A DNA stretch of 64,000 nucleotides from Firmicutes bacterium UBA2203 (GCA_002327235.1 DCUX01000046.1:4032-68031), one strand, 5' to 3'. Shown: positions 33,109 to 61,528, counted from the first letter of the stretch. Made by a program: numbers and translations. Notes: generated by a model not told the origin, from the sequence alone.

Positions 33109-33696
33109 GTGAGTCAAAACCAGGGTTTGTTGATTGTTTTATCCGGTCCTTCCGGGGTGGGAAAGGGAACAGTTTGTCATGCCCTATTGAATATGCTGCC
33201 GGGCCTTAAGTTATCCGTTTCGGTTACCACCAGACCTCCTAGAGCTGGAGAGGTAGAAGGAATTAATTATTATTTTGTAAGTAAAAAAAAGTTTTTTGAA
33301 ATGGTTGCTCAAGATAAGTTGCTGGAATGGGCGCATACCTATGATTTTTTTTATGGAACACCGCGGGAAGCGGTAAATCACGTTTTAAACCAGGGTAAAG
33401 ATTTAATACTAGAAATTGACGTTCAAGGTGGTATGCAGGTTAAGCAAAGGTTTTCAAGCGCCATAACCATTTTTCTTTACCCTCCATCAATGGAAGAATT
33501 ATTATACAGGTTAAAAAAACGGGCCAGTGATTCACCGGAGGATATTCAAAAGCGGCTACATTGGGCCGCTAAAGAAATGCAGATGTCCACTCAATATGAT
33601 TACGTAGTGGTTAACGATCTAGTAGAAAATGCCGTATCCAAAATCCTGGCTATTTTAACCGCGGAAAAATGTAAAAGGATGAGCAAAGCCCAGTAG
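33109..33696 (+). CDS. gmk: Guanylate kinase
   Basis: 195 aa. GPSGVGKGT P-loop and TTRPPR.GE..G..Y.F motif. Confidence 0.9.
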   Translation: MSQNQGLLIVLSGPSGVGKGTVCHALLNMLPGLKLSVSVTTRPPRAGEVEGINYYFVSKKKFFEMVAQDKLLEWAHTYDFFYGTPREAVNHVLNQGKDLILEIDVQGGMQVKQRFSSAITIFLYPPSMEELLYRLKKRASDSPEDIQKRLHWAAKEMQMSTQYDYVVVNDLVENAVSKILAILTAEKCKRMSKAQ

Positions 33697-33744
33697 GTTA
33701 ATCGTCCCGATTGACATCCAGTAGGTCAATTGTCCCGATTGACC
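33693..33744. repeat. Two tandem family-C hairpin units (GTAGGTTAATCGTCCCGATTGAC / GTAGGTCAATTGTCCCGATTGACC)
   Basis: Related to AGGTCAACCGGGACGGTTGACCT at 54390 and 56087, and in inverse orientation at 53005. The first unit contains the gmk TAG stop. Confidence 0.7.
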
Positions 33745-33783
33745 TTTGAGAGAATAAAGCACGGCGACTTAGGAGGTCAAGTT

Positions 33784-33987
33784 ATGAAGGAAGAGGTATC
33801 CTTTGATGAACTATTAAAAAAAGTAGACAGCCGTTTTACTTTAGTAGTTATTACCGCTAAGAGAGCCAGGGCATTGGCCGAAAAAGAAGCTGAGCAAAAT
33901 AAAAACAACACCGTGAACCCGATAGAGGCAGCTTTAGAAGAGCTAGCTAAAAACAAGATTACTTATCGGTTTCTTAAATCTGAATAA
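33784..33987 (+). CDS. rpoZ: DNA-directed RNA polymerase omega subunit
   Basis: ATG 33784 after AGGAGG. ...DSRFTLVVITAKRAR.L is diagnostic. The ORF track opens it at 33730. Confidence 0.85.
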   Translation: MKEEVSFDELLKKVDSRFTLVVITAKRARALAEKEAEQNKNNTVNPIEAALEELAKNKITYRFLKSE

Positions 33988-34001
33988 GATAAGGATAAAA
34001 T

Positions 34002-35231
34002 ATGCTGACGAAAAAATTTATTACCTTGGGAATTACAGGAGGAATTGCGGCCTATAAAGCCGCTGAATTAGCTAGCACGCTAAATCAGGCCGGGGCCGAA
34101 GTTCACGTAATTATGACCCGGGCAGCCCAAAAATTTATTAGGCCCGTAACATTTCAAGCCTTAACCGGTCAACCGGTCCACACCGCTATGTTTACCCGGT
34201 TAACTGGTTGGCGGGTGGCTCATGTTGATCTGGCTACGCGCTCCGATTTAATCGTTATAGTTCCAGCTACGGCTAATATTTTGGGTAAGTTGGCTCACGG
34301 TATTGCCGATGATTTATTAAGCACCACTCTTTTAGCGGCCACCTGCCCTGTCTTGCTTTGTCCGGCCATGAATACCGGTATGTACCAAAACCCCATTGTG
34401 CAGGCAAATATAAGCCGCTTAAAGGAACTGGGCTATTATATTATAGAACCGGCTACCGGTTGGTTGGCTTGCGGACAGGAAGGCCCTGGCAGGTTACCGG
34501 CGTTAGATTTAATTTTTAATCAGATTAAAGATTTGCTAACGAAAACAAGCAGGGCAGGTTTCCAGACGGCGCGAAGCGACTGGCAAGGACTAACGGTTAT
34601 GATTACGGCCGGAGGAACAAGAGAGCCCCTTGACCCTATCCGACATATTTCCAATCGCAGTTCGGGGAAAATGGGCTACGCTCTAGCCCGGGATGCTCTT
34701 AACCGAGGAGCCCAGGTGATTTTAATTTCCGCCCCTACAAACGTGCCTCCTCCGGTAGGCGCAAAGGTAATTTGGGTTGAAAGGACTAAAGAGATGTACG
34801 AACAGGTTTTAACCCATTTTCCAAAGGTTGACGTAGTTTTTAAAGCGGCCGCAGTAGCCGATTATTCCCCCCGGTTTAAGGCGAACCAAAAGATAAAAAA
34901 AAAGGATGAGGTATATCTGCTGGAACTGGAAAAAACTCCGGATATCCTGCTTGAATTAGGCCAACGCAAACAACCCCACCAAATCCTGGTTGGTTTTGCG
35001 GCCGAAACAGAAAATTTAGAGGAAAATGCCCGGCGTAAACTAGCTCAAAAAAATTTAGATTTAATTGTGGCTAATGACGTCACTCAGCCTGGCTCAGGAT
35101 TTGGCCAGGACACAAATATAGTTAAAATAATTTATCCCGACGGGAAGATTATCTCTTTGCCTCAAATGGAAAAAACAGCCTTAGCCCACCACATTCTTGA
35201 TTTGGTGTTACCTTTACGAGTCAAAAAATGA
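34002..35231 (+). CDS. coaBC: Bifunctional phosphopantothenoylcysteine decarboxylase / phosphopantothenate-cysteine ligase
   Basis: 409 aa. GITGGIAAYK flavoprotein N-domain. ITAGGTREPLDPIRHISNRSSGKMG ligase domain. Confidence 0.9.
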   Translation: MLTKKFITLGITGGIAAYKAAELASTLNQAGAEVHVIMTRAAQKFIRPVTFQALTGQPVHTAMFTRLTGWRVAHVDLATRSDLIVIVPATANILGKLAHGIADDLLSTTLLAATCPVLLCPAMNTGMYQNPIVQANISRLKELGYYIIEPATGWLACGQEGPGRLPALDLIFNQIKDLLTKTSRAGFQTARSDWQGLTVMITAGGTREPLDPIRHISNRSSGKMGYALARDALNRGAQVILISAPTNVPPPVGAKVIWVERTKEMYEQVLTHFPKVDVVFKAAAVADYSPRFKANQKIKKKDEVYLLELEKTPDILLELGQRKQPHQILVGFAAETENLEENARRKLAQKNLDLIVANDVTQPGSGFGQDTNIVKIIYPDGKIISLPQMEKTALAHHILDLVLPLRVKK

Positions 35232-35315
35232 AACCCCAAAAGATTACCCGGCAATCCTTCCTTTTCAAAGCATAAACAGGTCTTACTTTTCCCACATAAT
35301 ATAATAAATAAATTC

Positions 35316-35404
35316 GTAACTACTCAGGTTCAAAGGGGCAAAGGCACAAAGGCACAAAGTTTTTTCATTTTCCCTTGGACTTCTGTGCTTACCTGAATAG
35401 TTAC
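35316..35404. mobile_element. Family-D MITE-like element (89 bp) with terminal inverted repeats GTAACTACTCAGG / CCTGAATAGTTAC and 8-bp direct flank duplication
   Basis: ATAAATTC lies immediately left (35308-35315) and right (35405-35412). Internal CAAAGGCAC repeats. Related copies at 36148, 40706 and 57666. Confidence 0.75.
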
Positions 35405-35454
35405 ATAAATTCAAGGTTAACCTCCTACTTTAAAAATATAAAGCAGGTGAGAGC

Positions 35455-35544
35455 ATGGCCAAAAGGGTGCCGGTTAGTCTTTATTTCGGTATAGCATTAA
35501 TAGGCTTAGGAGGGATTATCTTAATTTTTACCGTCTTGTTTTAA
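35455..35544 (+). CDS. Possible 29-aa hydrophobic peptide (MAKRVPVSLYFGIALIGLGGIILIFTVLF)
   Basis: Short ORF after AGGTGAG. One predicted TM segment. No other support. Confidence 0.25.
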   Translation: MAKRVPVSLYFGIALIGLGGIILIFTVLF

Positions 35545-35609
35545 GAACCTAAGCTTACTCCGGCATTCCCCCGGTAATGCTAACCACCAAAGCCAGGACG
35601 AGCTTTAAT
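35543..35609 (-). pseudogene. Degenerate duplicate of the 3' end of the membrane-protein gene at 40284-40688
   Basis: Aligns with 40287-40353 (AAGA.CCTA..CTTACTCCGG....CCCCGGTAATGC...CCACCAAAGCCAGGAC.AGCTTTAA). A 1-nt deletion and an in-frame TAG are present. Confidence 0.6.
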
Positions 35610-35701
35610 CTTCTGTTGTCCGAAGACATTTTTTAGCCGGGTTAATTTATCATTGTTTTTTTCATGGTTATGGTGTTTAATTTTTATAAGGAAGGTGTTG
35701 G

Positions 35702-36133
35702 TTGATGCTTGAAAAAGAACAAAAGGAAAGATTTTTTGTTGAGGAGTTAAAAATTATTCAAGATATTATTAAACGGATGGCTTTTGATTCTTTTATGATT
35801 AAAGGATGGGCTATCACCCTGGTAATAATTACCCTTCTTTTAAAAGGCGGTAGTTTTCAGGTCTTTATTTCCTTTATTCCCCTCCTGGTTTTCTGGTATC
35901 TTGACGCTTATTTTCTCTGGCAGGAAAGAATGTATAGAAAGTTGTATAATTGGGTGGTCGAAAACAGGCTTAAAACAGAAGACTTTCTCTTTAATATGAA
36001 CGCTTACAGATTTAAAGACAAAGTGCAGGGAAAGTTAAGGATAATGTTTTCTCTTACCCTGGGGTGGTTTTATGGGTCTATAGCCGTGTTAATATTAGTA
36101 TATGCCTTTTTTATTTTAAAATGGAGGATTTAA
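35702..36133 (+). CDS. Hypothetical membrane protein (2-3 TM), AT-rich
   Basis: 143-aa ORF. No family recognised. Lies between two family-D elements. Confidence 0.45.
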   Translation: MMLEKEQKERFFVEELKIIQDIIKRMAFDSFMIKGWAITLVIITLLLKGGSFQVFISFIPLLVFWYLDAYFLWQERMYRKLYNWVVENRLKTEDFLFNMNAYRFKDKVQGKLRIMFSLTLGWFYGSIAVLILVYAFFILKWRI

Positions 36134-36147
36134 AATTAAGACAAAAG

Positions 36148-36352
36148 GTAACTATTCAGGTAGGCACGTAGGTTCAAAAGCCTGCCCGCCAGGCTGGCAG
36201 GCAGGTAATCTACCAAAAAAAGATAAATAGGCTAGCCTGCCAGACAGGCGGGGCACAAAGGTCCAAAGTGAAATGAAAACATATAGAAATTAGAAATCTG
36301 CAAGCCTGGCAAAAAACTTTGTGCCTTTGCCCCTTTGAACCTGAGTAGTTAC
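36148..36352. mobile_element. Family-D MITE-like element (205 bp) carrying a nested family-E palindrome (36181-36255)
   Basis: Ends are GTAACTATTCAGG ... CCTGAGTAGTTAC. The right 36 bp are the exact reverse complement of 35316-35351. Inside is CCTGCCCGCCAGGCTGGCAGG...CCTGCCAGACAGGCGGGGCA. Confidence 0.75.
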
Positions 36353-36381
36353 ATAAAAATTATGGTTAAGGGAGAAAATTT

Positions 36382-37291
36382 ATGGTGCCGGTTGAAAAAG
36401 TTAACCCTCGTTCCTTTGTTACGGCCTATCTTGAACGGGCCGGGGCTGTTTTAGAGGAAGCCGGTTATGAACTGCTGGAAGTACTTTTACCTGAAGGACT
36501 GCCTTTTAAAGACCAGGAAGAACTTTTACTGGCTTTTGACTATGAGGTGGCTCAGGAAAATCCAAAAGCAATCTTTGTTACTTACGGCAGCCTTTTTTTA
36601 GATCGGCGAGTGGTTAGAAGGGCATAACTTAAGGGGTTTTTACTTCCAGGCTGTATTTTCTTCATACGAAAAAACAGAGGAATTATTGGAAATTGTGGTG
36701 GATGGGCACACCGGTCTGGTAGTTTCTGATTTTAACGCCTGGTGGGGAAAGGTAGTAGCTGTAGAAGAACCTTTTTGGCAGTTGCCGCGGGCAAAAAATA
36801 TTTCCCCGGGCAAATTATACCAGGCCGCCTGCCGGGAAGCAGAAAAGCAAGCCAAAGAGCGGGCCTTAGTCTTTCAGTACCAGTCAAAAGAACGGTTAAA
36901 GAAGGAATTGGACAAAGTATCCGGGTATTACACCCAGATGAGCCGGGAAATTAAAAATAAGCTTAAAACAACCGAAGAAAAAGATAAAAGAGAACGCCTG
37001 GCAAAAAAGCTAGCGGCCGTAGAAGCGGAACGTCAGCGCCGGGAAAAGGATGCTCTTGAGCGCTACGCCATAGAAATTGCCCTGCACCTGGACCATATTG
37101 TGGACTACAGCCTGCCCCGCCTGCACGTTAAGCTGGAAGTACAACATAAAAAGCAGCTATTAAATACTACTGTCTTATACAACTTATTAGCCCACCACCT
37201 GGAAGCGCCTGTTTGCCCCCTTTGCGGCCATCCTTCCAAATGCTTGCTTCCGGATGATCAGAAAAACCGGTTTATTTGTCCTCGCCATTAA
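36382..37291 (+). pseudogene. Hypothetical coiled-coil protein with C-terminal CPLCG...CPRH zinc-ribbon-like motif, apparently frameshifted
   Basis: ORF 36382-36627 and the frame open from 36602 (continuing into ORF 36686-37291) overlap at 36602-36627. Both look coding. No family recognised. Confidence 0.4.
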
Positions 37292-37444
37292 ATAGATTTA
37301 ATGACTTGCGTTTTGAGTACCTTTATTTGGGCATTACGTCATTCATTGGGAAGCGCTCAGGTAGCTTCTTACCCTTGATTTCAGCTTCTTAATTATCAAG
37401 GGCTTTGGCGTTTGAAAGGGTGAAGTTGGGTTAACAACCCGTTC

Positions 37445-40015
37445 CTATTTTTCCGAAAATTTAACCTTTCCTGGCCACCAGTTCCATTTCCCAAGTAGAT
37501 AAGCTATGGCTGGGACTAAAATTGCCCGGACAAGAAAAGTATCAATTAAAATTCCAATGGCTACAGAACACCCAATTTGGAAGAGAGTTTGCAAAGGAGA
37601 AGTGGTTAGAGCAGCAAAAGTACCTGCCAGGATTATTCCACAGGCGGTTATCGTCCCGCCCGTTTTACGGGCAGCCTCCCGTACTCCTTGTTTAACCTCC
37701 ATTTTTTCTGATTCTTCCCGAAAACGGGAACTCAAAAAGATATTATAATCTTCCCCTAAAGTAATAAGCAGAACAAAAATTAATATTGGGATGGCATAAC
37801 TTAATCCTCCCTGTCCAAAAACGTCCTGGAATAGCCAGGTAACAATTCCCAGCGTAGTTCCATAGCTTAAGAGAACCGTGGCCAAGAGGTACAAAGGAGC
37901 AACCAGACTTTTCAAGAGGACAATCAGCACCAAAAGAACTCCCGCCATAACCATAACCATTACTTTATTGAAGTCTTTATCGATTACTTCCCGGATATCG
38001 GCAAATTCAGCCGTCTGGCCACCCACATATTTTTCAAACCGGCCGTCAAAATTTTGCCCAAGACATTCCCTTAGCTTATGAACTACCTGAAATGCCTGAG
38101 GTGAGTAAGGGTCCTCTTTTAAAATTACATGGAAGCGAAGGGTTTTTTTATCTTTTGAAAAGTAAAAAGCGGTTAATTTTTGTAATTGCTCATTTTTGGC
38201 TACTAAAGATTGTGGATAAAAATAAGCGTGAGGCTTTCGGGAAAAAACATTTTCTAGTTCGCCCAAATTAACTTCTAGTCTTTTCATGGCGTCTTTTAGC
38301 CTGGTTAAAGCAACGGGGGGAAAGGTGAAAGTCTGAGGAGGTTGACCTCCGTTTTGTTGAAAACTTAAGGTCGCTAGAAGGGCAAAACTTTGCTTATAAG
38401 CAGGATGTTCCTTAATTTCTGGGTAAGTATCCCCTAATTCTGTAAGATAATCACGAAAAGTTTCGGAGAAATCCGCTAAAAAAGCAGGTTTTAATTCTGT
38501 ATTTATTCCCGGTAAGATTAATTCTTTAACCTGGCTAAGTTGGGCTCTTAAACCTTTAAGTTGGTTTTTCACTAAAAATGGAGAATTAGAAAGTTTTCCG
38601 TCCGGGGCGATAATGCTCTCTATTTTGGCCACACCTTCGATTTGCGAAATTTTGCTGATTGCCCTTTCTAAAGTGGAAAAATAAGCCTTTAAATCTTTCT
38701 CTGGCGAGTTAATAATTACCACCAAAGGCATCATTTCCCCTTGAGAAAAGTGGTTTTTTAAAATTTCAAAACCCATGACGGAATCTTTATCTTTAGGTAT
38801 TTCAGCCAGAAGATCAAAAGATGTCTTCAACTGGGGAAGCTTCAAGTAAGGGATGAGCAAAAGAAAAATCAGGAGAGGGACGATTATTTTTGCCTTGTTG
38901 GTAACAAAATCGGTAATTCTGGACCAGTTAAAGAAAAGCGCCTGGCGTGGCCTTTCCACAACTGAAAAAGGCCAGAAAAGTTTGGCGCCCAGGATACTGG
39001 CTAAAGCGGGGGTAAAGGTAAGACTGGCCAAAAGAGTAACGCTGATAGCAATAGCAAGCACCGGCCCGATCGTTTTAAGCATCCCGAAGCTTGCGGTGGC
39101 AAGGCCCAGGAAGCCAATGATAACAGTAGCGGCAGAAGCAGTGATTACTGCCCCAATCTTATTTACCGTGATTAAAGAGGCCTTATCTGGGGAGTTGCCA
39201 CGGGCCATTTCTTCCTTTAGGCGGGAAATAATAAACAAACAATAATCAGTTCCGATTCCAAAACTTAAGACGATTAAAAATGAATCTATGGTGGAGGAAA
39301 TTTTCCACCCGGCCTGAGCCAGAAAACCAACAATACCACGGGAAATAAGAAAAGCAACTGTGATTGTGGCTAGGGGAAGCAAAAAAGCAACCGGCGAGCG
39401 GTAAATAAGTAAAAGTAAGATAATTACTAAAATTATTGTAGTAAGGGTGGTACGGTCAATGCTTTCTTCAACTGTTGTTGCAAGATCGGCGCCTATTCCT
39501 GCAGGACCGGTTAAATGAACGACTAAATTTGCTGGTTTATTTTCTTTTAAATGTTGGCGGATTGCCTTTACAGTTTCCCTGCTCTTTTCCTCAAAAGAAA
39601 GGGTGGTAAAATTAACTTGCATAATCATTGTGGTTTTATCAGCGCTGAGAAAAAGAGAGGCAGTTTCCGGACGGGTAAATGCAGAAAATACTTCTTTAAC
39701 TCCCCGGGGTTTTTGGGTGGAAGACAGCCATCTGGAAATTTTTTGCGCGTAATTAAAATCATTTTTTTGCAACCCCGCGGGGCGGAAAAATACCAGCGTC
39801 CCTGTTCTTGCCAAAGATTCTTCAGGAAATTTTTCTTTAATTAAATCCCGAACTTTTATCGATTCAACATTCCGGGGCAAAAAATCTGAATCATCTATCG
39901 TTCCTACTTTACTAAGCGAAGGGGCTTTCAGGCCAAGAACCAAAGCCAGAATTACCCAGAAGGCGAGAATCAAATAGCGGTAAGAAACAACTTTGGCTCC
40001 GATTTTTTCAAACAT
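37445..40015 (-). CDS. MMPL/RND-superfamily membrane transporter
   Basis: 856 aa with two repeated 6-TM MMPL modules (...GTDYCLF..SR..EE...; ...GEDYNIFLSSRFREE...). Confidence 0.85.
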   Translation of the reverse strand: MFEKIGAKVVSYRYLILAFWVILALVLGLKAPSLSKVGTIDDSDFLPRNVESIKVRDLIKEKFPEESLARTGTLVFFRPAGLQKNDFNYAQKISRWLSSTQKPRGVKEVFSAFTRPETASLFLSADKTTMIMQVNFTTLSFEEKSRETVKAIRQHLKENKPANLVVHLTGPAGIGADLATTVEESIDRTTLTTIILVIILLLLIYRSPVAFLLPLATITVAFLISRGIVGFLAQAGWKISSTIDSFLIVLSFGIGTDYCLFIISRLKEEMARGNSPDKASLITVNKIGAVITASAATVIIGFLGLATASFGMLKTIGPVLAIAISVTLLASLTFTPALASILGAKLFWPFSVVERPRQALFFNWSRITDFVTNKAKIIVPLLIFLLLIPYLKLPQLKTSFDLLAEIPKDKDSVMGFEILKNHFSQGEMMPLVVIINSPEKDLKAYFSTLERAISKISQIEGVAKIESIIAPDGKLSNSPFLVKNQLKGLRAQLSQVKELILPGINTELKPAFLADFSETFRDYLTELGDTYPEIKEHPAYKQSFALLATLSFQQNGGQPPQTFTFPPVALTRLKDAMKRLEVNLGELENVFSRKPHAYFYPQSLVAKNEQLQKLTAFYFSKDKKTLRFHVILKEDPYSPQAFQVVHKLRECLGQNFDGRFEKYVGGQTAEFADIREVIDKDFNKVMVMVMAGVLLVLIVLLKSLVAPLYLLATVLLSYGTTLGIVTWLFQDVFGQGGLSYAIPILIFVLLITLGEDYNIFLSSRFREESEKMEVKQGVREAARKTGGTITACGIILAGTFAALTTSPLQTLFQIGCSVAIGILIDTFLVRAILVPAIAYLLGKWNWWPGKVKFSEK

Positions 40016-40283
40016 TTTTTGTTCCTCGTTTTATCTTTATAAAATTGAAATTAGTTATTTGCTATAAACTTGAGATTTATACTAAGGAAAATCAACTGGG
40101 GAGTAGACGTCGATATATCTGGTATACCGTGAGGGTTCCAAAAATGCTTCATAAACGTCTCGCAATTGAGGCATAAAGGAAAGAGGTATCGCTTAACCAG
40201 TATCTTGTCTATAAGTTGAGCCGCTAAGTTTCCCTATCAGAACTGTACGGTTCATCAACAGCGCAATATATCTCAAAACTCCT

Positions 40284-40688
40284 TTAAGAGCCTAGACTTA
40301 CTCCGGCCGTCCCCCCGGTAATGCCGGCCACCAAAGCCAGGACAAGCTTTAACCCTAAGGGAGCCACGGATACGGAAAAAGAAAAAAATACAGCCGCCGT
40401 AATTAAAGCCAGCAAAAAGAAAAGTACCGCCACCCCCAGTCCATGGTAAATACCCTTGTTTTTTGTTTGTTGGGCGGTCCACCAAGCCCCTAAAAAAATG
40501 CTAAGAAAAAATAGGCCATTTATTATCCAAGGCAAACTGCTTTCGGTAAAATCAGCAAAGTAATAAACAAGCCCAATAATAACACTTCCTAAAACAGATG
40601 CAGCCAAACTTAACAAGGTCCCTTTAATTATAGCCAGCCAATTTAGGAAAGTACCGCGTTCTTGTTTTAAAACAACCACCTTTTTCAC
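40284..40688 (-). CDS. Small 4-TM membrane protein (resembles the TIGR04086-type Firmicute family)
   Basis: 134 aa, four hydrophobic segments. Family assignment is from memory only. Confidence 0.5.
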   Translation of the reverse strand: MKKVVVLKQERGTFLNWLAIIKGTLLSLAASVLGSVIIGLVYYFADFTESSLPWIINGLFFLSIFLGAWWTAQQTKNKGIYHGLGVAVLFFLLALITAAVFFSFSVSVAPLGLKLVLALVAGITGGTAGVSLGS

Positions 40689-40705
40689 CCCTTGCTTTAA
40701 AATAA

Positions 40706-40820
40706 GTAACTACTCAGGCACAAAGGCACAAAGTTTTTGTCTATTTATTACTTAATGTTTTTATTTCCCTTTGTGCCTTTGTGCCTTTGTGCCTTTGCCC
40801 CTTTGTGCCTGAGTAGTTAC
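40706..40820. mobile_element. Family-D MITE-like element (115 bp)
   Basis: GTAACTACTCAGGCACAAAGGCACAAAG ... CTTTGTGCCTTTGTGCCTTTGTGCCTTTGCCCCTTTGTGCCTGAGTAGTTAC. Confidence 0.75.
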
Positions 40821-40935
40821 ATTAATTCTATGTAATAAGGCATAGAAAATATAACCTTTAGATTAGAAAATAAAACGGTCGAAAAATTAGAGAACATGTT
40901 GGTAAATTTTGTTTTAAACAGGCAGGAAATTAAAG

Positions 40936-42584: not shown

Positions 42585-42631
42585 CTCTTTTCTTCTTGCG
42601 TTTATTTTACCTTTGGAGGTATTATTTTATT

Positions 42632-48386: not shown

Positions 48387-48430
48387 CCTAAGTAATTTAA
48401 GGGACAAAGTTTATAATAGTGGTGCCGTTG

Positions 48431-48596
48431 GTAGAGGCGTTTAATTTAATACCCCTACCAAGTGACACCAACTTGGTAGGTGCGCAAGTAGGGGCGTTAA
48501 ATTTAACGCCCCTATCGGTGCTTTTGGAGATTGGAAGTTGGAAGTTGGAACCAAAAAGTTCTAACCTCTAACCCCCAACCTCCAATTTCCAACTTC
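48431..48596. repeat. Repeat cluster: degenerate family-A palindrome (48431-48458), small hairpin, canonical family-A (48488-48515), family-B hexamer-periodic hairpin (48525-48596)
   Basis: GTAGAGGCGTTTAATTTAATACCCCTAC; GTAGGGGCGTTAAATTTAACGCCCCTAT; GGAGATTGGAAGTTGGAAGTTGGAAC...CCAACCTCCAATTTCCAACTTC. Confidence 0.8.
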
Positions 48597-48798
48597 AAAA
48601 AGGCAGGGTTTGCCTTTAGCCTAATCATATAGCATCTTTTTTGTTTCTCCTTGGTTAGCCAAGGGTTTTTTTATTTTTAACCTTTTTAGTTGTTTCATGG
48701 GAAAAGAATAAAACTATGTTATTAAGGCAATAATGAAATTGAGGTAATACGGAAAATAAGCTAAAAAAGATTAAAAAATTAGGAGTGAAGGAACAACG

Positions 48799-49572: not shown

Positions 49573-49581
49573 ATACCAGGT

Positions 49582-50478: not shown

Positions 50479-50514
50479 TAGGGGTTATAGGGGCGTTAAA
50501 TTTAACGCTCCTAA
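50479..50514. repeat. Family-A palindrome (ATAGGGGCGTTAAATTTAACGCTCCTAA) preceded by a partial GTAGGGGTT duplication
   Basis: 25/28 match to the canonical 28-mer. Confidence 0.75.
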
Positions 50515-51165: not shown

Positions 51166-52083
51166 ATGTTAAAACCTTCATTTGTCTTAATAGGGTGCGG
51201 TAAGGTAGGTAGTGCTCTAGCCTGTCTTTTGCAAGAAAAAAATTACCCGCTAGTTGGGGTAGCGAGTAAAAGCCTTGCTTCGGCTCAAAGATTAGCTGAA
51301 AAATTAAATTGTCAAGCCGCAAATAAACCAGAAAAAATAACCCCTCAAGCAGAGCTGGTTTTTATTACTACGCCTGACCGGGAGATTGCTCAGGTGGCCC
51401 AAAGGGTAGCTAAAAAAGGAGGTTTTCACCGAGGCCAAGTAGTTATTCATACCAGTGGTGTTTGTGAGGCCGGCGAATTACGTGGGGTACGGGAAGCAGG
51501 GGCCTTTGCCGCATCCATGCACCCAATTCAAGCGGTAGCTGATGTAGAAACAGCCCTTAAGAATTTACCGGGCTCTTATTTTGCCCTGGAAGGAGATACC
51601 GAGGCTTTACCGGTAGTAACCACCTTAGTTTCTGATTTAGGAGGACGTTTTTTCTTTATTCAGGCTAAAGATAAGCCTCTTTACCATACCGCGGCCTGCG
51701 TAATTTCAAACTATTTAGTGGGTTTGGCTCATTTTAGTACGGGATTATATCAAAGTTTTGGCTTGTCAAGAAAAGAGGCTTTTCAAGCCTTGTTACCTCT
51801 TATTCGGGGTACGCTTGATAACATTGAGCAAAATGGTCCTATCTTAGCTCTTACCGGGCCGGTAGATAGAGATGACGAAGAAACCATTAAAAGTCATTTA
51901 AATGCATTAACGCAAAAAGTGACCCAGGAGGAAATTAATCTATACTGTGCTCTTGGGCTATACATCATTTCTATTGCCCGGGAAAAGGGGAGTCTTAACG
52001 CTGAGCAGGCCGCAAGATTACAGACAATTTTTACTACAGGAAGAATTCAGCCGCGTATTTTAGAAAGGCTAAAAATCAAGTAG
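51166..52083 (+). CDS. Rossmann-fold / DUF2520-type protein, putative ketopantoate reductase-like first gene of the pan operon
   Basis: 305 aa. N-terminal IGCGKVGSALA dinucleotide-binding motif. The position upstream of panBCD suggests a role in pantoate synthesis (inference). Confidence 0.6.
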   Translation: MLKPSFVLIGCGKVGSALACLLQEKNYPLVGVASKSLASAQRLAEKLNCQAANKPEKITPQAELVFITTPDREIAQVAQRVAKKGGFHRGQVVIHTSGVCEAGELRGVREAGAFAASMHPIQAVADVETALKNLPGSYFALEGDTEALPVVTTLVSDLGGRFFFIQAKDKPLYHTAACVISNYLVGLAHFSTGLYQSFGLSRKEAFQALLPLIRGTLDNIEQNGPILALTGPVDRDDEETIKSHLNALTQKVTQEEINLYCALGLYIISIAREKGSLNAEQAARLQTIFTTGRIQPRILERLKIK

Positions 52084-52107
52084 GGGCGTTAAATTTAACG
52101 CCCCTAC
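52080..52107. repeat. Family-A 28-bp palindrome (canonical)
   Basis: GTAGGGGCGTTAAATTTAACGCCCCTAC. Its TAG (52081-52083) is the stop codon of the preceding gene. Confidence 0.9.
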
Positions 52108-52136
52108 AAGGGTCGTCTTAAAAGGGGGATGTATTT

Positions 52137-52985: not shown

Positions 52986-53004
52986 AAGATAATTATTCAA
53001 TGAT

Positions 53005-53024
53005 AGGTCAACCGTCCCGGTTGA
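53005..53024. repeat. Family-C hairpin in inverse orientation (AGGTCAACCGTCCCGGTTGA)
   Basis: Reverse-complement form of GGTCAACCGGGACGGTTGACC. Confidence 0.7.
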
Positions 53025-53050
53025 TAAAAACAATAGATGGAGCGTAAAAA

Positions 53051-53926: not shown

Positions 53927-53931
53927 TTTAA

Positions 53932-54303: not shown

Positions 54304-54417
54304 GAGGTGAAAAGTCGGAAAGGAGAATAAGAAGGGATTTGGTGGTGCCGAATCTCCCTATTAAAGTTCTACCTCCAACTTCTGTTTTTGTCAACCGGGA
54401 CGGTTGACCTACCATTT
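54303..54417. repeat. Degenerate family-B arm(s) plus family-C palindrome (54390-54417)
   Basis: ...GATTTGGTGGTGCC...AGTTCTACCTCCAACTTC...GTCAACCGGGACGGTTGACCTACCATTT. Same module order, inverted, as at 56087-56185. Confidence 0.65.
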
Positions 54418-54467
54418 CTTATCCACGGCCGAACAAACAACCCAGCAAAGGGTTTTAATGAGTTTTA

Positions 54468-56075
54468 ATGAGTTTTAAGGAGGAAGTATATTTGTTCAAA
54501 CCCTATTTAGTAAATTTTGATACCCGGCAGTTACCGGTGGAAACATATGAATATGTTATTATTGGCGGGGGTATTGCCGGGTTATATACGGCTTGTAAAG
54601 TGGCCCGGGAGGGGGGACAGGTTTTGGTCCTTACCAAGCATACCCTGGAAGATACCAGCACTGATAAGGCCCAAGGGGGAATCGCGGCTGCTTTAGGTCA
54701 ATCTGATTCACCGGAATTGCACTTTAAAGATACTATTTTTGCCGGGGCAGGATTATGCGATCCTAAAGCAGTTGAAATATTGGTTAATGAAGGGGTAAGC
54801 CGGGTTAAAGAATTGATTGAGTGGGGGGCTCAGTTTGACTACGATGAAGGGGAGTTGGCGTTAACCAGGGAAGGAGCGCATAGCCAGCGTCGCATTTTGC
54901 ACGCGGCCGGTGACGCTACCGGAGCAGAAATTCAACGTGCTCTTGCCTACCAGGCCAATCAAATTCCTAACCTTAAAATATACGAAAACTATTTTGTAGT
55001 AGATTTACTGGTAGCCGATGATATTTGTTACGGAGTCCTGGCCTGGGATAATGTTAACCAGTGTTTTAAGGTGTTTTACGGCCGGGTGGTTGTTCTGGCT
55101 ACCGGTGGTACGGGCCAGGTATACGAACATAATACTAATCCTGAAATAGCTACGGGTGATGGTATTGCCATGGCTTATCGGGCCGGGGCGGAAGTTATGG
55201 ACATGGAATTTATCCAGTTCCATCCCACCGTGCTTTGTTTACCCGGGGCGCCCTCTTTTTTAATTTCTGAGGCCGTACGTGGTGAAGGCGCCCGGTTGCG
55301 AAATTGTTACGGCGAGCAGTTTATGCCATGTTATCATCAATTGGCAGAGTTAGCCCCCCGCGATATAGTGGTCCAAAGTATGCTTAAAGAAATGGTCCGG
55401 ACAGGTTCAAAAAACGTTTTTTTAGACCTGTCTCCCCTACCGGCGGAGGTAATCCAGCAACGTTTTCCTAATATCACCCGTACATGCGCTACTTACGGCC
55501 TGGATATTACTAAGGACCCTATCCCGGTTGCTCCGGCGGCTCATTATATGATGGGAGGGGTAAAAACTAATCTGCACGGTGAAACCAACATCAAGGGGCT
55601 TTACGCTTGCGGCGAGGTAGCCTGCCAGGGGGTCCACGGGGCTAATCGCCTGGCTAGCAATTCTTTACTGGATGGCTTGGTTTTTGGTTTTCGGATTGTA
55701 AAAGAAAGTATGCGTTTTTTAACCAGTTACGTTCCTTCGTCAGTTGAATTCGTTTGTAATTATTTAAAACCGCCTGAGGAAATAAAAATAAATGGCCTAA
55801 CGCGTGAGTTACGGGCGGTAATGAATAAATGTGCCGGTCCTGTTCGCTCATGCCAAAGATTAACGGGAGCTTTAAGTTTTTTTGAAAACCAGGCTGATTT
55901 GTTCTTAAGTGAAGCAAAAAATATCGCCGAAATGGAGTTACGTAATATGCTCCTGGTTGGTCAACTAATTTGTGAGGCCGCTTTAATGAGGACAGAAAGC
56001 CGGGGGGCGCATTACCGGGAAGATCATCCTGCCGCAAGTGAGCGGTGGGTTAAACATATAATTTTACGTTTATAG
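54468..56075 (+). CDS. nadB: L-aspartate oxidase
   Basis: 535 aa. YVIIGGGIAGL FAD motif and the HYMMGG / RGAHYRED motifs. A likelier start is TTG 54492, 8 nt after AAGGAGG. ATG 54468 lies in a 10-bp tandem repeat (AGTTTTAATG x2). Confidence 0.9.
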   Translation: MSFKEEVYLFKPYLVNFDTRQLPVETYEYVIIGGGIAGLYTACKVAREGGQVLVLTKHTLEDTSTDKAQGGIAAALGQSDSPELHFKDTIFAGAGLCDPKAVEILVNEGVSRVKELIEWGAQFDYDEGELALTREGAHSQRRILHAAGDATGAEIQRALAYQANQIPNLKIYENYFVVDLLVADDICYGVLAWDNVNQCFKVFYGRVVVLATGGTGQVYEHNTNPEIATGDGIAMAYRAGAEVMDMEFIQFHPTVLCLPGAPSFLISEAVRGEGARLRNCYGEQFMPCYHQLAELAPRDIVVQSMLKEMVRTGSKNVFLDLSPLPAEVIQQRFPNITRTCATYGLDITKDPIPVAPAAHYMMGGVKTNLHGETNIKGLYACGEVACQGVHGANRLASNSLLDGLVFGFRIVKESMRFLTSYVPSSVEFVCNYLKPPEEIKINGLTRELRAVMNKCAGPVRSCQRLTGALSFFENQADLFLSEAKNIAEMELRNMLLVGQLICEAALMRTESRGAHYREDHPAASERWVKHIILRL

Positions 56076-56193
56076 GGCGTTAATTTAGGTCAACCGGGAC
56101 GGTTGACCTACCATTTTGGTGGTAAGAGGTTGGAGGTTGGAACTTCTTGATTCCAACTTCCAACTTCCAACTTCCAACTTCCAATCGGAGGTG
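56072..56193. repeat. Mosaic repeat block: family-A half-site (56072-56087), family-C palindrome (56087-56117), family-B hairpin (56125-56185) ending in CCAATCGGAGGTG
   Basis: TATAGGGCGTTAATTTA; AGGTCAACCGGGACGGTTGACCTACCATTTT; GAGGTTGGAGGTTGGAAC...TTCCAACTTCCAACTTCCAACTTCCAATCGGAGGTG. Contains the nadB TAG stop and the nadC SD. Confidence 0.8.
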
Positions 56194-56203
56194 GGTTTAA
56201 AAA

Positions 56204-57052: not shown

Positions 57053-57730
57053 GTGGAAGGGAAAAAAATAAGGGTGAAGCAGCGCTTTTTTTACTGTCCT
57101 AAATGCGGCGGAAATTTAAAATATAAACGGTACCGAGAGCGTCCCCGTTTGGTTTGCGTTAGGTGCAGTTATGTCTTTTATGAAAACCCGGCCGTAGGGG
57201 TAGCCGCCATTGTTTTAAATAAAGACAGGCAGATATTGCTAGGAAGGCGCGGTACCACATTGGTGGATATTAGTCATCAGATGTCGGGCGTTAGAAGAAA
57301 AAAACAAACTAATTCTTCAACCATACCGGCGACCGGCAATGAACAACCGGCGAGCTTATATAAAGGACTTTGGTGCATCCCCTGTGGCTACGTTGAATAC
57401 GATGAAGATGTTTACCAGGCGGTGATCCGGGAATTTAAAGAGGAAACCAATTTGGACATTATCTTAAATGGGGTTTTTACGGTACAGTCTAATTTCCATA
57501 ATCCTGAACTGCATACCGTAGGAATATGGTTTATGGCTAAAGTAACGGGGGGAGAATTGCGGGCGGGAGACGATTTAGACCAACTGGCTTATTGTAGTTT
57601 AACTGACCCGCCACCGCTTGCTTTTCCTACGGATAAAATTGTCCTGGACATGCTGGCTAAAACCTTTCAGGTAGGCACAGAGGAGCAAAGGCACAGAGGC
57701 ACAAAGGGAAATGAAACAACCATGCTGTAG
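57053..57730 (+). CDS. NUDIX hydrolase with N-terminal zinc ribbon, an internal ~30-aa insertion and a repeat-derived C-terminal tail
   Basis: CPKCGG...CVRC ribbon. Nudix box GYVEYDEDVYQAVIREFKEETNL. About 40 residues lie between LLGRRG and GLW, where I recall roughly 8-10 in NUDIX proteins. The last ~20 codons lie in the family-D element. Confidence 0.75.
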   Translation: MEGKKIRVKQRFFYCPKCGGNLKYKRYRERPRLVCVRCSYVFYENPAVGVAAIVLNKDRQILLGRRGTTLVDISHQMSGVRRKKQTNSSTIPATGNEQPASLYKGLWCIPCGYVEYDEDVYQAVIREFKEETNLDIILNGVFTVQSNFHNPELHTVGIWFMAKVTGGELRAGDDLDQLAYCSLTDPPPLAFPTDKIVLDMLAKTFQVGTEEQRHRGTKGNETTML

Positions 57731-57850
57731 GGGCATATTGCAATACGCCCCTACAAAGGAGAATGAAAATCCAAGGATTTTCGGATGAAAACATATAGAG
57801 ATCTGCAGGTCTGGCAAAAAAACTTTGTGCCTTTGAACCTGAGTAGTTAC
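57666..57850. mobile_element. Family-D element lacking its left terminal repeat, carrying a nested variant family-A palindrome (57727-57754)
   Basis: TTCAGGTAGGCAC... shared with 36155. Right end ...CTGGCAAAAAAACTTTGTGCCTTTGAACCTGAGTAGTTAC shared with 36305-36352. Nested GTAGGGGCATATTGCAATACGCCCCTAC contains the NUDIX TAG stop. Confidence 0.7.
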
Positions 57851-57864
57851 ACAATAACGGAAAA

Positions 57865-58842
57865 ATGAAAAAACAAATTTTATATTTATTGAAAAATGGT
57901 TATCCACAAGCTGTTTCAGGAGAAAGTATATGTAAAGCTCTGGGCGTTTCCAGGACCTCGGTATGGAAACATATCCAGGTGCTGCGTAAAGATGGATACG
58001 AAATAGCGGCTCAGCCCAACGTTGGTTACCGCCTGGTGAGTGTGCCTGATTTTTTATACCCGGAAGAAGTTACCTATAATTTGGATACTGATTTTTTGGG
58101 TCGCACGGTTTATTATTATAAGGAGGCAGATTCAACAAATCAAATAGCTAAAGGTTTAGCCAGGCAGGGGGCGGCCGATGGCAGCCTGGTAGTTGCTGAA
58201 GCGCAAAGTGCGGGTCACGGCCGCCTATCGAGAGGCTGGTTTTCCCCTTACGGCAAAGGAATATGGTGTTCGGTTATCCTTTACCCGAAAATTAATCCAA
58301 TTGAGGTACCGCCAATAACTATGTTAACATCGGTAGCCATAGCCCGGGCAATAAAGGAGGTAGTTGGGATCGAAGCCGGCATTAAGTGGCCTAATGATAT
58401 ATACCTTAAGGGGAAAAAGGTGTGTGGCATTCTCACGGAAATGGGGGCCGAGATGGAGCAGGTAAAGTATCTGGTTTTAGGGGTAGGCCTTAATGTAAAT
58501 ATTGAGGCGGAAGACTTTCCCTCCCCTTTAAAAGAAGTAGCCACTTCTTTAAAAATTGAAAGCACTCAGCCCGTAAGCCGGCTGCGTCTTTTGCAGGTGA
58601 TTTTAAAGGAACTAGAAAAGTTATATTTTGTTTGGCTAAAAGAAGGATTTGCTCCGATTCTAATCCAATGGAAAAAGTTATGTGTGCACCTGCCTGGTTT
58701 AGTGCGTCTGGACAGCTTAAAAGAAAGCTGGGAAGGATGGACGGAAGATGTTGATTTAAGTGGGGCCTTATTATTGCGCTTATCCACCGGGGAGATACGT
58801 CGTTTTATCACGGGGGAAATTTCTTTGCGTGAGGTGACTTAA
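57865..58842 (+). CDS. birA: Bifunctional biotin-[acetyl-CoA-carboxylase] ligase / biotin operon repressor
   Basis: 325 aa. N-terminal w[15 protein letters not shown] and KWPNDI motifs. Confidence 0.9.
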
Positions 58843-58847
58843 AATAT

Positions 58848-59630
58848 ATGCTTTTAGGGTTTGATGTGGGCAACACTAATATTGTCTTAGGGGTATATCA
58901 GCATAAAGAATTGCTGAAACACTGGCGTTTGTCTACTTTTCCTTACCGTACGGCTGATGAGTACGGGATGTTGTTAATGGATCTTTTTGGCCATGCCGGT
59001 ATCATTTTTCAAGATATTAAAGCCTTAATTATTTCCTCGGTGGTTCCTCCTCTTATGCTGGCTTTAGAACAAATGGCAAAGAATTACTTTAATTTAACTC
59101 CTTTAATTGTTGGGCCCGGCATAAAAACAGGTATGCCTATAAAATATGAAAATCCGCGTGAAATTGGGGCCGACCGGATTGTCAATGCCGTTGCCGGACA
59201 CGCTTTATACGGTAGCCCGCTTATTATCGTAGATTTTGGCACCGCCACCACTTTTTGCGTTATTTCCGCACACGGGGAATATTTGGGAGGGGCTATCGCT
59301 CCAGGGATTAATATTTCGACCGAAGCCTTGTTTACCCGGGCGGCCAAACTCCCCCGCGTTGAACTGGTAAAACCCCCCACCGTTATCGGTAAAAATACGG
59401 TTAACAGTATGCAGTCAGGTATTCTTTACGGTTTCGTGGGTCAGGTTGACGAAATTGTTCGCCGGATTAGAAAAGAACTGGGGGAGAATCCCTTTGTCCT
59501 GGCTACGGGAGGGTTGGCGGAGCTAATTGCCAAAGAATCAAGCACAATTAACGAGGTTGATCCTTTGCTTACTTTAAAAGGATTACAAATTATTTACGAG
59601 CGCAACAGCCAGTTGGAAGTTGGAAGTTAG
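58848..59630 (+). CDS. coaX: Type III pantothenate kinase
   Basis: 260 aa. [11 protein letters not shown] start, GADR and DFGTATT motifs. The last 6 codons and TAG lie in a family-B repeat. Confidence 0.9.
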
Positions 59631-59682
59631 AAGTTGGAAGTTGGAATTAAAAAGTTCCAACTTCCAACCTCCAATCGGAGGT
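59611..59682. repeat. Family-B hexamer-periodic hairpin ending in CCAATCGGAGGT
   Basis: AGTTGGAAGTTGGAAGTTAGAAGTTGGAAGTTGGAATTAAAAAGTTCCAACTTCCAACCTCCAATCGGAGGT. Holds the coaX stop (59628-59630) and the nadE SD (GGAGG 5 nt before ATG 59687). Confidence 0.85.
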
Positions 59683-59686
59683 AAAG

Positions 59687-61468
59687 ATGAGAATTGCCCT
59701 TGCCCAACTCAACCCTATAATTGCCAATATTAAGTATAATACGGTTAGGATTTTACAGGCTATAGATTTTGCCGGCCGGTTAAAAGCTGATTTAGTTATC
59801 TTTCCTGAACTGGCGATAATAGGTTACCCGCCGCGCGATCTTTTGTGGCGCCAGGATATTTTAGAGCAGGTAGAAACAGCTTTAAAAAAAGATATCGCGC
59901 CCAAAAGCAGAGAGCTAGGAGTGCTAATTGGGGCTCCGGTAGTTGATGCCGGGAATCTTTACAATGCGGCCTTGCTTTTTTACGAAGGCAGGCTATTGGG
60001 TCGCCAGGATAAAACATTGCTGCCGGATTATGATGTCTTTGAAGAAAACCGGTATTTTAAACCGGCCCTAAAACGCGAACCGCTTTTATTTAAAGGAGTA
60101 AAGTTTGGTCTGACCGTTTGCGAAGACATTTGGAACGATAAAGATTACTGGAACAGGCGCCATTACTCGGTTGATCCCGTGGAAGAATTAATTGCCCAAG
60201 GGGCAGATTTGATCATTAATATTTCTGCTTCCCCTTATTATTACGGTAAGATTGATTTGCGCTCCGATATGCTGCAAAAAATGGCCGCTAAGTATCAAAA
60301 AATTTTTATTTACGCTAACCAAGTGGGCGGTAATGATGAGCTTATTTTTGACGGGTCCAGTTTAGCCGTTAATTCTAAAGGGGAAATAATAGGCCGGGCC
60401 GGAAGCTTTGGTGAAGATATGCTGTTCTTTAGCCTTTGGAGGGGCGTTAAATTTAACGCCCCTACTATGTACTTAGAAAGTTGGGCACCTGCCCGTCAGG
60501 CTGGCAGAAGGAATAATGATGGTATGATAAATAATCTAACAGCCTGCCAGACAGGCGGGCAGACAGTCGGGAAGGATAAAGAGGAGCGTTTTCCTCAAAA
60601 AATTTACTACGCGTCCTCGCCGGAGGATATAGGTTGTCTTTATCATGCTCTGGTGCTAGGAATTAAGGATTATTTGCGCAAAACCGGCTTTAAACGGGTC
60701 CTGGTGGGTTTAAGCGGGGGCATTGATTCTTCTGTTGTTGCTGCTCTTTCTGCTGCTGCCTGCGGTAAGGAAAATGTTTTAGGGGTGGCCATGCCCTCAA
60801 AATACTCTTCCCCGGGCAGCCTAGCCGATGCACGCCAGTTGGCTTTAAACCTGGGTATAGCGTACCGGGAAATACCTATTCAAGATATCTTTGATAAATA
60901 TCTGGCCACTTTAAACAAAGAAGGCGTTCCTCTGGTTGATTTGGCCGAAGAAAATATTCAGGCCCGCATTCGCGGCAATATTTTAATGTTCATTTCTAAC
61001 CGGGAGGGTTACCTTACCTTAAGCACGGGAAACAAATCGGAGTTGGCGGTAGGGTACTGCACCCTTTACGGGGACATGTGCGGCGGTCTGGCCGTTATTT
61101 CTGACGTCCCTAAAACAATGGTTTATGTTTTGGCCAGGTACATTAACCGGGAACGGGAAATCATCCCCGCCTCAGTGCTGGTTAAGCCTCCCTCTGCCGA
61201 ACTAAGGCCGAACCAAACCGATCAAGATTCTTTACCCCCTTACGAAATCCTGGACGCTATCTTGCACCTGTATATTGAAGAAAATAAACCGGCGGCCGAA
61301 ATTATCGCCGCCGGCTATGATGCGGCACTAGTGCGGGAAATTATCCGAAAAATTGACCGGGCAGAATATAAACGGCGCCAAGCTGCCCTGGGTCTTAAAG
61401 TAACCACCAAGGCCTTTGGTATGGGGCGGCGGATACCCATTGCGTGGCAGCAGCCAATTAGAAGTTAG
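59687..61468 (+). CDS. nadE: Glutamine-dependent NAD+ synthetase (CN-hydrolase + NAD synthetase domains) with repeat-derived in-frame insertion in the interdomain linker
   Basis: 593 aa. N-terminal nitrilase-type domain (FPELAIIGYPP..., C in GLTVCEDIW). C-terminal GLSGGIDSS PP-loop. Insertion at about residues 251-292. Confidence 0.9.
   Translation: MRIALAQLNPIIANIKYNTVRILQAIDFAGRLKADLVIFPELAIIGYPPRDLLWRQDILEQVETALKKDIAPKSRELGVLIGAPVVDAGNLYNAALLFYEGRLLGRQDKTLLPDYDVFEENRYFKPALKREPLLFKGVKFGLTVCEDIWNDKDYWNRRHYSVDPVEELIAQGADLIINISASPYYYGKIDLRSDMLQKMAAKYQKIFIYANQVGGNDELIFDGSSLAVNSKGEIIGRAGSFGEDMLFFSLWRGVKFNAPTMYLESWAPARQAGRRNNDGMINNLTACQTGGQTVGKDKEERFPQKIYYASSPEDIGCLYHALVLGIKDYLRKTGFKRVLVGLSGGIDSSVVAALSAAACGKENVLGVAMPSKYSSPGSLADARQLALNLGIAYREIPIQDIFDKYLATLNKEGVPLVDLAEENIQARIRGNILMFISNREGYLTLSTGNKSELAVGYCTLYGDMCGGLAVISDVPKTMVYVLARYINREREIIPASVLVKPPSAELRPNQTDQDSLPPYEILDAILHLYIEENKPAAEIIAAGYDAALVREIIRKIDRAEYKRRQAALGLKVTTKAFGMGRRIPIAWQQPIRS
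60438..60562. repeat. Family-A palindrome (60438-60465) plus family-E palindrome (60486-60562) inside the nadE reading frame
   Basis: GGAGGGGCGTTAAATTTAACGCCCCTAC (27/28 to canonical). CACCTGCCCGTCAGGCTGGCAG...AGCCTGCCAGACAGGCGGGCAG resembles 36181-36255. Translated as WRGVKFNAPT...WAPARQAGRR...LTACQTGGQT without stops. Confidence 0.85.
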
Positions 61469-61528
61469 AAGTTAGAATTAAAAAGTTCCAACCTCCAACC
61501 TCCAACCTCCAACTTCCAACTTCCAACC
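61458..61528. repeat. Family-B hexamer-periodic hairpin
   Basis: TTAGAAGTTAGAAGTTAGAATTAAAAAGTTCCAACCTCCAACCTCCAACCTCCAACTTCCAACTTCCAACC. Holds the nadE TAG stop (61466-61468). Confidence 0.85.

Follow-up and report, generated by a model that had tools for sequence, protein, structure and literature searches.

GTAG-tagged REPs and heptamer-arm hairpins at gene ends in a Peptococcaceae-like Firmicute

Cofactor genes and their hairpin repeats

The 64,000-nt stretch analysed here (hereafter the window; Firmicutes bacterium UBA2203, DCUX01000046.1, 4032-68031) comes from an uncultured Peptococcaceae/Desulfotomaculum-like Firmicute, in which short intergenic spacers are colonized by several families of small hairpin repeats. 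Its cofactor genes follow the order pan motif RNA, DUF2520, panB, panC, panD, nadB, nadC, NUDIX, birA, coaX and nadE. At several gene ends the stop codon lies within a repeat unit, and the repeats concerned are either repetitive extragenic palindromes (REPs) of the GTAG-tagged kind or hairpins with arms of tandem heptamers.

Family A is a 28-nt perfect palindrome, GTAGGGGCGTTAAATTTAACGCCCCTAC, with the layout GTAG-GGGCG...CGCCC-CTAC and a 12-bp stem; its predicted RNA hairpin has a free energy of -22.1 kcal/mol (z = -6.5), and about 10 copies lie within the window. Family C consists of GTAG followed by GTCAAYCG-TCC-CGRTTGAC (8-bp stem, 3-nt loop), with ATAG in place of the GTAG head in one copy. 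A and C both qualify as GTAG-tagged REPs, with the TAG contained in the conserved head: they combine a short stem-loop and a terminal GTAG with a high, dispersed copy number and a mostly extragenic location near the 3' ends of open reading frames (ORFs). Family A also has the two feet of a "double-foot" REP, a 5' GT[AG]G and a 3' C[TC]AC, with G-C pairs at the foot of the stem.

Family B is a hairpin with arms of tandem heptamers, (GTTGGAA)n and (TTCCAAC)n, that enclose a conserved loop; two copies have predicted energies of -35 and -41 kcal/mol (z about -4.5 to -5). Tandem Repeats Finder (TRF) reports period-7 arrays at 48531, 56151, 59611 and 61487, each of which is paired with an inverted complementary array to give a hairpin; the 7-nt units are intergenic and run head to tail. 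A common G-to-A variant of the unit, GTTAGAA, carries TAG. For heptamer-arm hairpins in general we relied on looser scans, as a stricter automated detector (6 found) was judged too conservative. Family D resembles a miniature inverted-repeat transposable element (MITE), with 13-bp terminal inverted repeats (GTAACTACTCAGG) and internal octamer arrays, and family E is a palindromic element of about 84 nt.

Species-representative genomes were scanned for the 22-nt core of family A, and at least 106 loci matched. Exact cores were found at no fewer than 27 loci of Peptococcaceae bacterium SCADC1_2_3, at least 36 of Desulfotomaculum sp. UBA9916 and at least 15 of Firmicutes UBA4795. Among the matches listed there were also metagenome-assembled genomes (MAGs) labelled Sumerlaeota, Edwardsbacteria, Nitrospinota, Nitrospirae, Cyanobacteria, Ignavibacteriales, Thermodesulfobacteriota, Syntrophaceae and Deltaproteobacteria, together with several unassigned bins, and GTAG...CTAC stood on both sides of 82 of the 115 exact cores. 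Proteins of the window were also found on metagenome contigs. Orthologous loci covering parts of the window are L108, L035, L110 (Firmicutes UBA4795) and L012, to which targeted look-ups added L113, a relative with 96% identity that carries the coaX/nadE junction, and L117 and L118.

Stop codons within repeats and their orthologs

The initial annotation named seven stop codons, and all seven are TAG (first bases at 33694, 52081, 56073, 57728, 59628, 61466 and 8015). By their Pfam matches the genes are gmk (guanylate kinase), a Rossmann/DUF2520 gene, nadB, a NUDIX gene, coaX (type III pantothenate kinase), nadE (glutamine-dependent) and POR gamma, which is referred to here as the gamma subunit of 2-oxoacid:ferredoxin oxidoreductase (OFOR). 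The location within a repeat unit is clear for the first six; that of OFOR gamma (stop 8015-8017) is a weak case, in which a degenerate A-like sequence (8015-8075, plus strand) follows the gene and a homolog of 89% identity is 2 residues longer.

The stop of gmk (33694-33696) is part of the first head of two tandem family-C REPs on the plus strand (33690-33745; TRF array 33690-33743) with the consensus (CCA)GTAG+GTyAAThGTCCCGATTGAC. That of DUF2520 (52081-52083) belongs to the perfect family-A copy at 52080-52107, whose fold is the one given above. The nadB stop (56073-56075) lies in an A-like left half, ATAGGGCGTTAA, within an element at 56072-56110 where the half-site (ATAGGGCGTTAATTTA) is fused to a reversed family-C REP (56086-56110). 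At the 3' end of NUDIX a composite insertion occupies 57660-57862 (plus strand) and includes an array of family-D octamers AGGCACAr (57673-57707), an A-variant REP, GTAGGGGCATATTGCAATACGCCCCTAC (57726-57755), that holds the stop (57728-57730), and a family-D right end with the terminal inverted repeat CCTGAGTAGTTAC (57796-57862). The two remaining stops are found in heptamers that read GTTAGAA in place of GTTGGAA and belong to the left arms of family-B elements on the plus strand. The first of these elements, at 59607-59675 (-35.2 kcal/mol, z = -4.5), encodes the coaX tail SQLEVGS and its stop (59628-59630). The second, at 61455-61528, forms a weaker hairpin (-16.1 kcal/mol, z = -2.2) and supplies the nadE tail PIRS and stop (61466-61468). 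Because the period of family B is 7 nt, three units of the GTTAGAA type give stops in all three frames, and the element at the nadE end, with its three TTAGAAG units, does offer TAG in each of them.

Alignment with orthologs bore out the suggestion that C-terminal residues are repeat-encoded for NUDIX, coaX and nadE, whereas the ends of gmk, DUF2520 and nadB proved to be native. The DUF2520 ortholog in UBA4795, which has no REP, ends at the same lysine with TGA. The repeat-free gmk gene of L117 ends in AAG TAG at the homologous position, and in L118 the stop is TAA and the REP lies further downstream. For nadB, the TAG and the A-like half-site are kept in UBA4795, which has a different nested element. 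Since these ends match, the repeat shares or abuts a native end and has made no new one, and the view that repeats created the stops of these three genes is not supported or, by the refuting condition that the initial annotation had set (repeat-free orthologs with the same final residues), refuted.

The other three ends have been rewritten. NUDIX of UBA4795, without any repeats, ends in ...AKALIHRF; the composite insertion, missing there and present in L113, gives the window protein a 20-residue tail that derives from family-D octamers and ends in the head of the A variant. Homologs of coaX continue past ...IYERN with 1-14 variable residues. In the window all 7 residues beyond ERN are family-B sequence, and in L113 too the residues beyond the conserved motif are element sequence. 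The nadE product of the window ends ...WQQPIRS, a 4-residue repeat tail with its stop in family B, and in L113 and L012 the ending is ...WQQQ and the GTAG head of a family-A copy holds the stop.

Filled and empty orthologous sites could be compared at DUF2520, NUDIX, the nadE linker, panB|panC and gmk. UBA4795 has no element at the DUF2520 end, between panB and panC, at the NUDIX end or at the family-B spot before nadC, and its operon is otherwise intact. At four junctions (coaX|nadE, the nadE end, the end of a sigma-factor gene and panB|panC) close relatives have different elements at the same place. For example, the coaX/nadE junction in L113 (1960-2059, corresponding to 59607-59675 in the window) holds a different heptamer hairpin, (GTCGTCA)n/(CGACGAC)n, whose left arm supplies a TAA stop. 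As this TAA lies within a heptamer hairpin, TAG is no general rule. The most unusual point of this analysis is that the hairpin element at a given gene junction has been replaced by a different one in close relatives. Such repeated colonization of these short spacers may point to hot spots, or simply to a lack of other permissive DNA. Further heptamer units were seen elsewhere: TAGGCTG in L062, GTGGTTR in L082, AAGTGRG in L072, AAATTGC in L088 and a G-rich unit in L035.

A second proposal was that family B donates the Shine-Dalgarno (SD) sequences of nadC and nadE. The string CCAATCGGAGGT is indeed common to the sites ahead of both genes. The family-B hairpin before nadC, (GGTTGGA)n ... (TTCCAAC)5 at 56126-56185 on the plus strand (-41.2 kcal/mol, z = -5.0), ends just ahead of the SD (GGAGG 56187-56191, GTG start 56204), and UBA4795, without this hairpin, has GAGGTG at the same spacing. 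For nadE (GGAGG 59677-59681, ATG start 59687) the right arm of family B ends 1 nt before the SD, and L113, with its different hairpin, has the same GAGGT. The donation claim fails, since orthologs without family B have GAGGT at the equivalent site; the SDs of both genes are native, and no more than one G can come from the repeat. In the folds predicted for the window and for L113, the final unit of the right arm, CCUCC or CUUCC, pairs with the SD. At birA a repeat cost the gene its SD instead of giving it one: in the window the composite insertion after NUDIX has eliminated the GAGG that UBA4795 has ahead of birA, leaving ACGGAAAAATG at 57863-57870.

Position and frame of the repeats relative to genes were determined for 201 family-A ends (both orientations) at 106 loci of related and unrelated genomes, among the matches listed; ORFs of at least 100 codons stood in for curated genes, and the locus sample is enriched in REPs. 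No long ORF enters 177 of the 201 ends. Forty-two stops lie within 60 nt upstream of the head and 11 at the head itself. This sharp spike at GTAG stands out from a level of about 0.8 per nt in the 60 nt past the stops, and the overlap of repeats with gene ends is far in excess of a smooth distribution. An ORF enters the repeat at the remaining 24 ends: 12 do so in the TAG frame, 8 in the first other frame and 4 in the second, and those outside the TAG frame either read through, gaining 10-20 repeat-encoded residues, or hold the repeat fully within the gene. Among overlaps at 3' ends, 12 of 18 are in the TAG frame, where one third is expected (binomial p = 0.004). In the window, TAG ends 19 of 68 ORFs (a simple non-overlapping set), comprising all 6 of the repeat-embedded stops and 13 of the 62 others (Fisher p = 2.5e-4), an excess that is largely due to TAG being the stop triplet built into the repeats. 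At the related loci 140 of 716 stops are TAG, and 16 of these 140 have a REP-type head, again in a REP-enriched sample. The preference for gene 3' ends that had been suggested is real, but it has already been published for GTAG REPs (PMC3733652).

Further copies and comparison with known elements

The nadE gene (59687-61468) has been hit three times, by two insertions in the linker between its CN-hydrolase and NAD-synthase domains and by the repeat that forms its C-terminus. The first insertion is an in-frame family-A REP (60438-60465) that encodes RGVKFNAPT; the second is an in-frame, palindromic family-E element, CCTGCCCGTCAGGCTGGCAG ... CTGCCAGACAGGCGGGCAG (60488-60571; about 84 nt, 28 residues). 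Both are missing in L113. A relative of family E sits in the loop of a family-B hairpin in L108. In the predicted nadE protein these insertions resemble Rickettsia palindromic elements (RPEs) and intragenic REPs, although the repeat families and the host differ.

Downstream of the sigma-factor gene lies a cluster at 48428-48600, with family-A copies at 48428-48457 and 48485-48514 and a family-B hairpin at 48523-48600, none of which overlaps the TAA stop; in L035 the site holds an unrelated G-rich heptamer hairpin. A family-A REP downstream of spoIIR (50484-50513) is kept at the orthologous site in L108, L035 and UBA4795. The panB-panC spacer contains a family-C REP with the ATAG head (53003-53027, plus strand), where L035 has an A variant and UBA4795 has none. 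Another family-A REP (62990-63021) is located 9 nt past the TAA stop of a transporter gene and directly ahead of the SD of the next gene. Two more family-A copies lie within 25256-25523, a degenerate one at 25256-25285 and a perfect one at 25496-25523.

Family D is found at 35310-36364, 40700-40832 and 57660-57862, and at about 2250 in L100, where the mini-copy is missing at the orthologous site of L069. The 1-kb copy encloses an ORF (35702-36133, 143 residues) without a Pfam match, and the family looks like a MITE or a larger element. A 69-nt match to the 3' end of a DUF3792 gene (40284-40688, minus strand) is duplicated within this 1-kb element (35540-35608 and 40283-40352).

Several other identities for the repeats were rejected. 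They are not intrinsic (Rho-independent) terminators, since a sense-strand U-run is missing from most copies; terminator prediction on the window flagged the copies at 52080 and 57725 on the minus strand only and no family-B hairpin, and a separate, genuine-looking terminator lies downstream at 48648-48665. Nor do they belong to known RNA families: at the gathering threshold the only Rfam matches in the window are a cobalamin riboswitch and a pan motif, and none coincides with a repeat. The pan motif (RF01749, 50954-51051) is upstream of DUF2520-panBCD, and the riboswitch (RF00174, 2028-2243) is further upstream. A TA-duplicating MITE (Correia- or Tc1/mariner-like) was discarded because no clean duplication appears in the filled/empty comparisons at DUF2520, the nadE linker or gmk.

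GTAG-tagged REPs have been described as a class that includes the E. coli and Pseudomonas REPs and the Stenotrophomonas SMAG elements; they are mostly found near ORF 3' ends, with some wholly inside ORFs, and ORFs beside them often owe their TAG stop to a GTAG terminus (Di Nocera, De Gregorio and Rocco 2013, BMC Genomics 14:522, PMC3733652). Families A and C agree with this class in their 20-40 bp stem-loops with a terminal GTAG, in a dispersed copy number of tens to hundreds with most copies a short way past an ORF, in occasional in-frame intragenic copies, in the presence of several families per genome and in nesting within other palindromes. They differ in that the host is a Firmicute of the Peptococcaceae lineage, and that paper (PMC3733652) nowhere uses the word Firmicutes.

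Tandem heptanucleotide repeats likewise have precedents. In Beggiatoaceae, TAACTGA direct repeats give stops in three frames and overlap the ends of upstream ORFs (MacGregor 2015, Front Microbiol 6:1397, PMC4679880). Family B shares with these, and with the short tandemly repeated repetitive (STRR) sequences of cyanobacteria, an intergenic location, stops in three frames, overlap with the upstream ORF end and a position adjoining the downstream start. By contrast, it pairs the heptamer array with its reverse complement in a long hairpin with a conserved loop, and the units of heptamer-arm hairpins vary by locus and strain (GTTGGAA, GTCGTCA, TAGGCTG, GTGGTTR and others).

The double-foot REPs to which family A corresponds belong to REPtrons of TnpA_Y1 subclass 2.4, with 5' GT[AG]G ... 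C[TC]AC 3', and REPs inside the tnpA_REP genes of this subclass have been described (Quentin, Siguier, Chandler and Fichant 2018, bioRxiv 10.1101/279083). Family A shares the feet, the G-C pairs at the foot of a long stem and the presence of an identical 28-mer within genes for REP-associated tyrosine transposases (RAYTs). Locus L023 has a RAYT-like gene on the minus strand (714-1277), which matches NF047646 with 46.7 bits, below the family cut-off of 80. The exact 28-mer stands in frame at nt 275-281 of this gene and of the RAYT-like genes in L115 (4001-4552) and L116 (1612-2178), and the RAYT of L115 has as its own stop the TAG of a flanking REP. Many RAYT homologs (P0121-P0240) read CRGVKFNAPT just past MPNHIHG, the HUH motif, and others have VGVQNFEPLQ, RGVQLNAPT or RDVACYVST at that spot, likewise palindrome-encoded and sometimes two in tandem. 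The identical 28-mer recurs at the 3' ends of RAYT-like genes in other phyla. This association was found only outside the lineage of the window (Edwardsbacteria, a Syntrophaceae-like context and unassigned MAGs).

The 28-mer is identical letter for letter in MAGs of many phyla with GC contents of 34-53%, and there is no conservation beyond the 28 nt. Loci with the identical sequence include L009, L016, L017, L023, L024, L037, L040, L048, L054, L072, L073, L080, L081, L084, L085, L088, L093, L102, L106 and L111. Identity extends across at least 8 phylum-level groups, whereas the associated RAYTs are only about 55-60% identical, which suggests either horizontal spread or very strong constraint. 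A literature search for the 28-mer found no paper containing it.

Multi-copy genes on small contigs of SCADC1_2_3 (L030, L033, L043, L044, L092 and L070) encode tandem peptide repeats (GIEK or ARGE), and a family-A REP follows every one of them; the contig flanks are 97-100% identical. Those of L030, L033, L043, L044 and L092 were considered as RAYTs and set aside, since from their translations the ORFs look like recombination-promoting nucleases/transposases instead.

Origin and meaning of the repeat-borne stops

The stops inside repeats are probably explained by colonization of the spacers by GTAG REPs and heptamer-arm hairpins, which were then retained. Families A and C would be non-autonomous and of the single-strand-hairpin type that goes with RAYT/TnpA_REP tyrosine (HUH-Y1) transposases. 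Where a REP head lands on a gene end in the right frame, it would share the stop of the gene or become it; as family A has a foot at both ends, TAG is offered to genes arriving from either side. Copies would persist where they are least harmful, in spacers, at stop codons, in variable C-terminal tails and in inter-domain linkers, and this retention filter, possibly with a preference for landing beside GTAG, would produce the observed stops. The adjacent SDs would be native, the repeats in very short spacers filling the gap up to them. This reading builds on the observed sequence anatomy, copy number, position statistics, filled and empty sites and REP-RAYT link in other phyla; within this lineage a RAYT would have mobilized the repeats, and the hairpins may have some role at the RNA level.

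A number of observations weigh against it. A tblastn search with the L023 RAYT and an E. coli RayT sequence found no RAYT in the window or in about 600 kb of Peptococcaceae-lineage loci, the only matches being to REP-encoded peptides. A metagenome scan for a RAYT with an internal REP returned 8 loci, none from samples that hold this organism. No clean insertion target or target-site duplication could be defined, and the reading does not account for the origin of families B, D and E, for which no mobilizing enzyme is known. Published GTAG REPs usually have one unpaired end tag, whereas family A is tagged at both ends and the tags are paired into the stem. When fully intragenic copies are included, the excess of the TAG frame falls to 12 of 24 (p = 0.07).

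IS200/IS605 elements insert 3' of a specific tetranucleotide. By analogy, the body of a REP might integrate beside a pre-existing GTAG, so that a native TAG preceded by G is one target among others and no selection for stops is involved. This is possible, but we think it the less probable course of events. The repeat-free gmk ortholog of L117 has its AAG TAG, and hence a GTAG, exactly where the REP head lies in the window, and the nadB TAG is conserved across species. Furthermore, 14% of unoccupied GTAGs within 0-60 nt of gene ends fall on stops, compared with 21% of REP heads (11/53), a difference that is not significant (p = 0.17). However, the repeat-free DUF2520 ortholog has AAG TGA and no GTAG, the empty nadE-linker site has no GTAG either, and the ends of NUDIX, coaX and nadE are clearly rewritten and not merely abutted. 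Only a handful of empty sites were available, of which as few as two count as informative; one (gmk) supports target sharing and two (DUF2520 and the nadE linker) do not. Pure coincidence, in which genes ending in TAG just happen to precede repeats with a TAG-like start, is very hard to credit. TAG is admittedly a common stop in the window and at related loci, at the frequencies given above, but chance placement would not give 11 stops at the exact head with so few per nucleotide nearby, nor all six embedded stops as TAG, nor tails that are demonstrably rewritten.

Hairpins might instead have been co-opted as punctuation between cofactor genes, as the initial annotation had offered as one option. 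They would then be selected intercistronic RNA elements (3'-end stabilizers, processing sites, or translational insulators or couplers) that must bridge the whole distance between the stop of one gene and the SD of the next, which is why families can substitute for one another at the same junction. E. coli REPs act as mRNA stabilizers, different elements do occupy the same four junctions in close relatives, and the fold predicted for nadE, in the window and in L113, would pair its SD with the last unit of the right arm. We nevertheless regard this as unlikely. The sites that are empty in UBA4795 lie in an otherwise intact operon, copies also occur inside coding regions, and the family-B hairpin at the nadE end is weak (z = -2.2). 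REP copies at orthologous sites also decay about as fast as their flanks: in the copy at 62990, 3 of the 28 positions are different in L012, and the copy at 48428 is degenerate. Because UBA4795 lacks several elements and copies decay at roughly the flank rate, tolerated selfish or neutral elements are favoured over selected punctuation. A more speculative idea, to which we give similarly little credence, concerns family B and its cousins alone. Heptamer-arm hairpins could be distinct, fast-turnover intercistronic cassettes that replace one another and REPs at precisely the same junction of nearly identical strains and serve as modular translational insulators or couplers, through an unknown hairpin-specific mechanism of exchange or generation. 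If so, each would span from the variable tail of the upstream gene, supplying its stop, to the downstream SD, which the last unit could sequester.

No new mechanism of gene punctuation emerges from this analysis. The provision of TAG, double-foot REPs and three-frame heptamers have all been published; what is added here is a new host lineage, in which an element of a known kind has a known effect, and GTAG REPs are thereby extended to a spore-forming lineage of Firmicutes. The identity of the 28-mer, set against the divergence of the RAYTs, is relevant to the question of horizontal movement of REP/RAYT systems. Where REPs abound in a lineage, repeats make up a noticeable share of its stop codons and C-terminal tails as well as some internal linkers, which affects gene calling, the alignment of ortholog ends and the reading of "variable tails".

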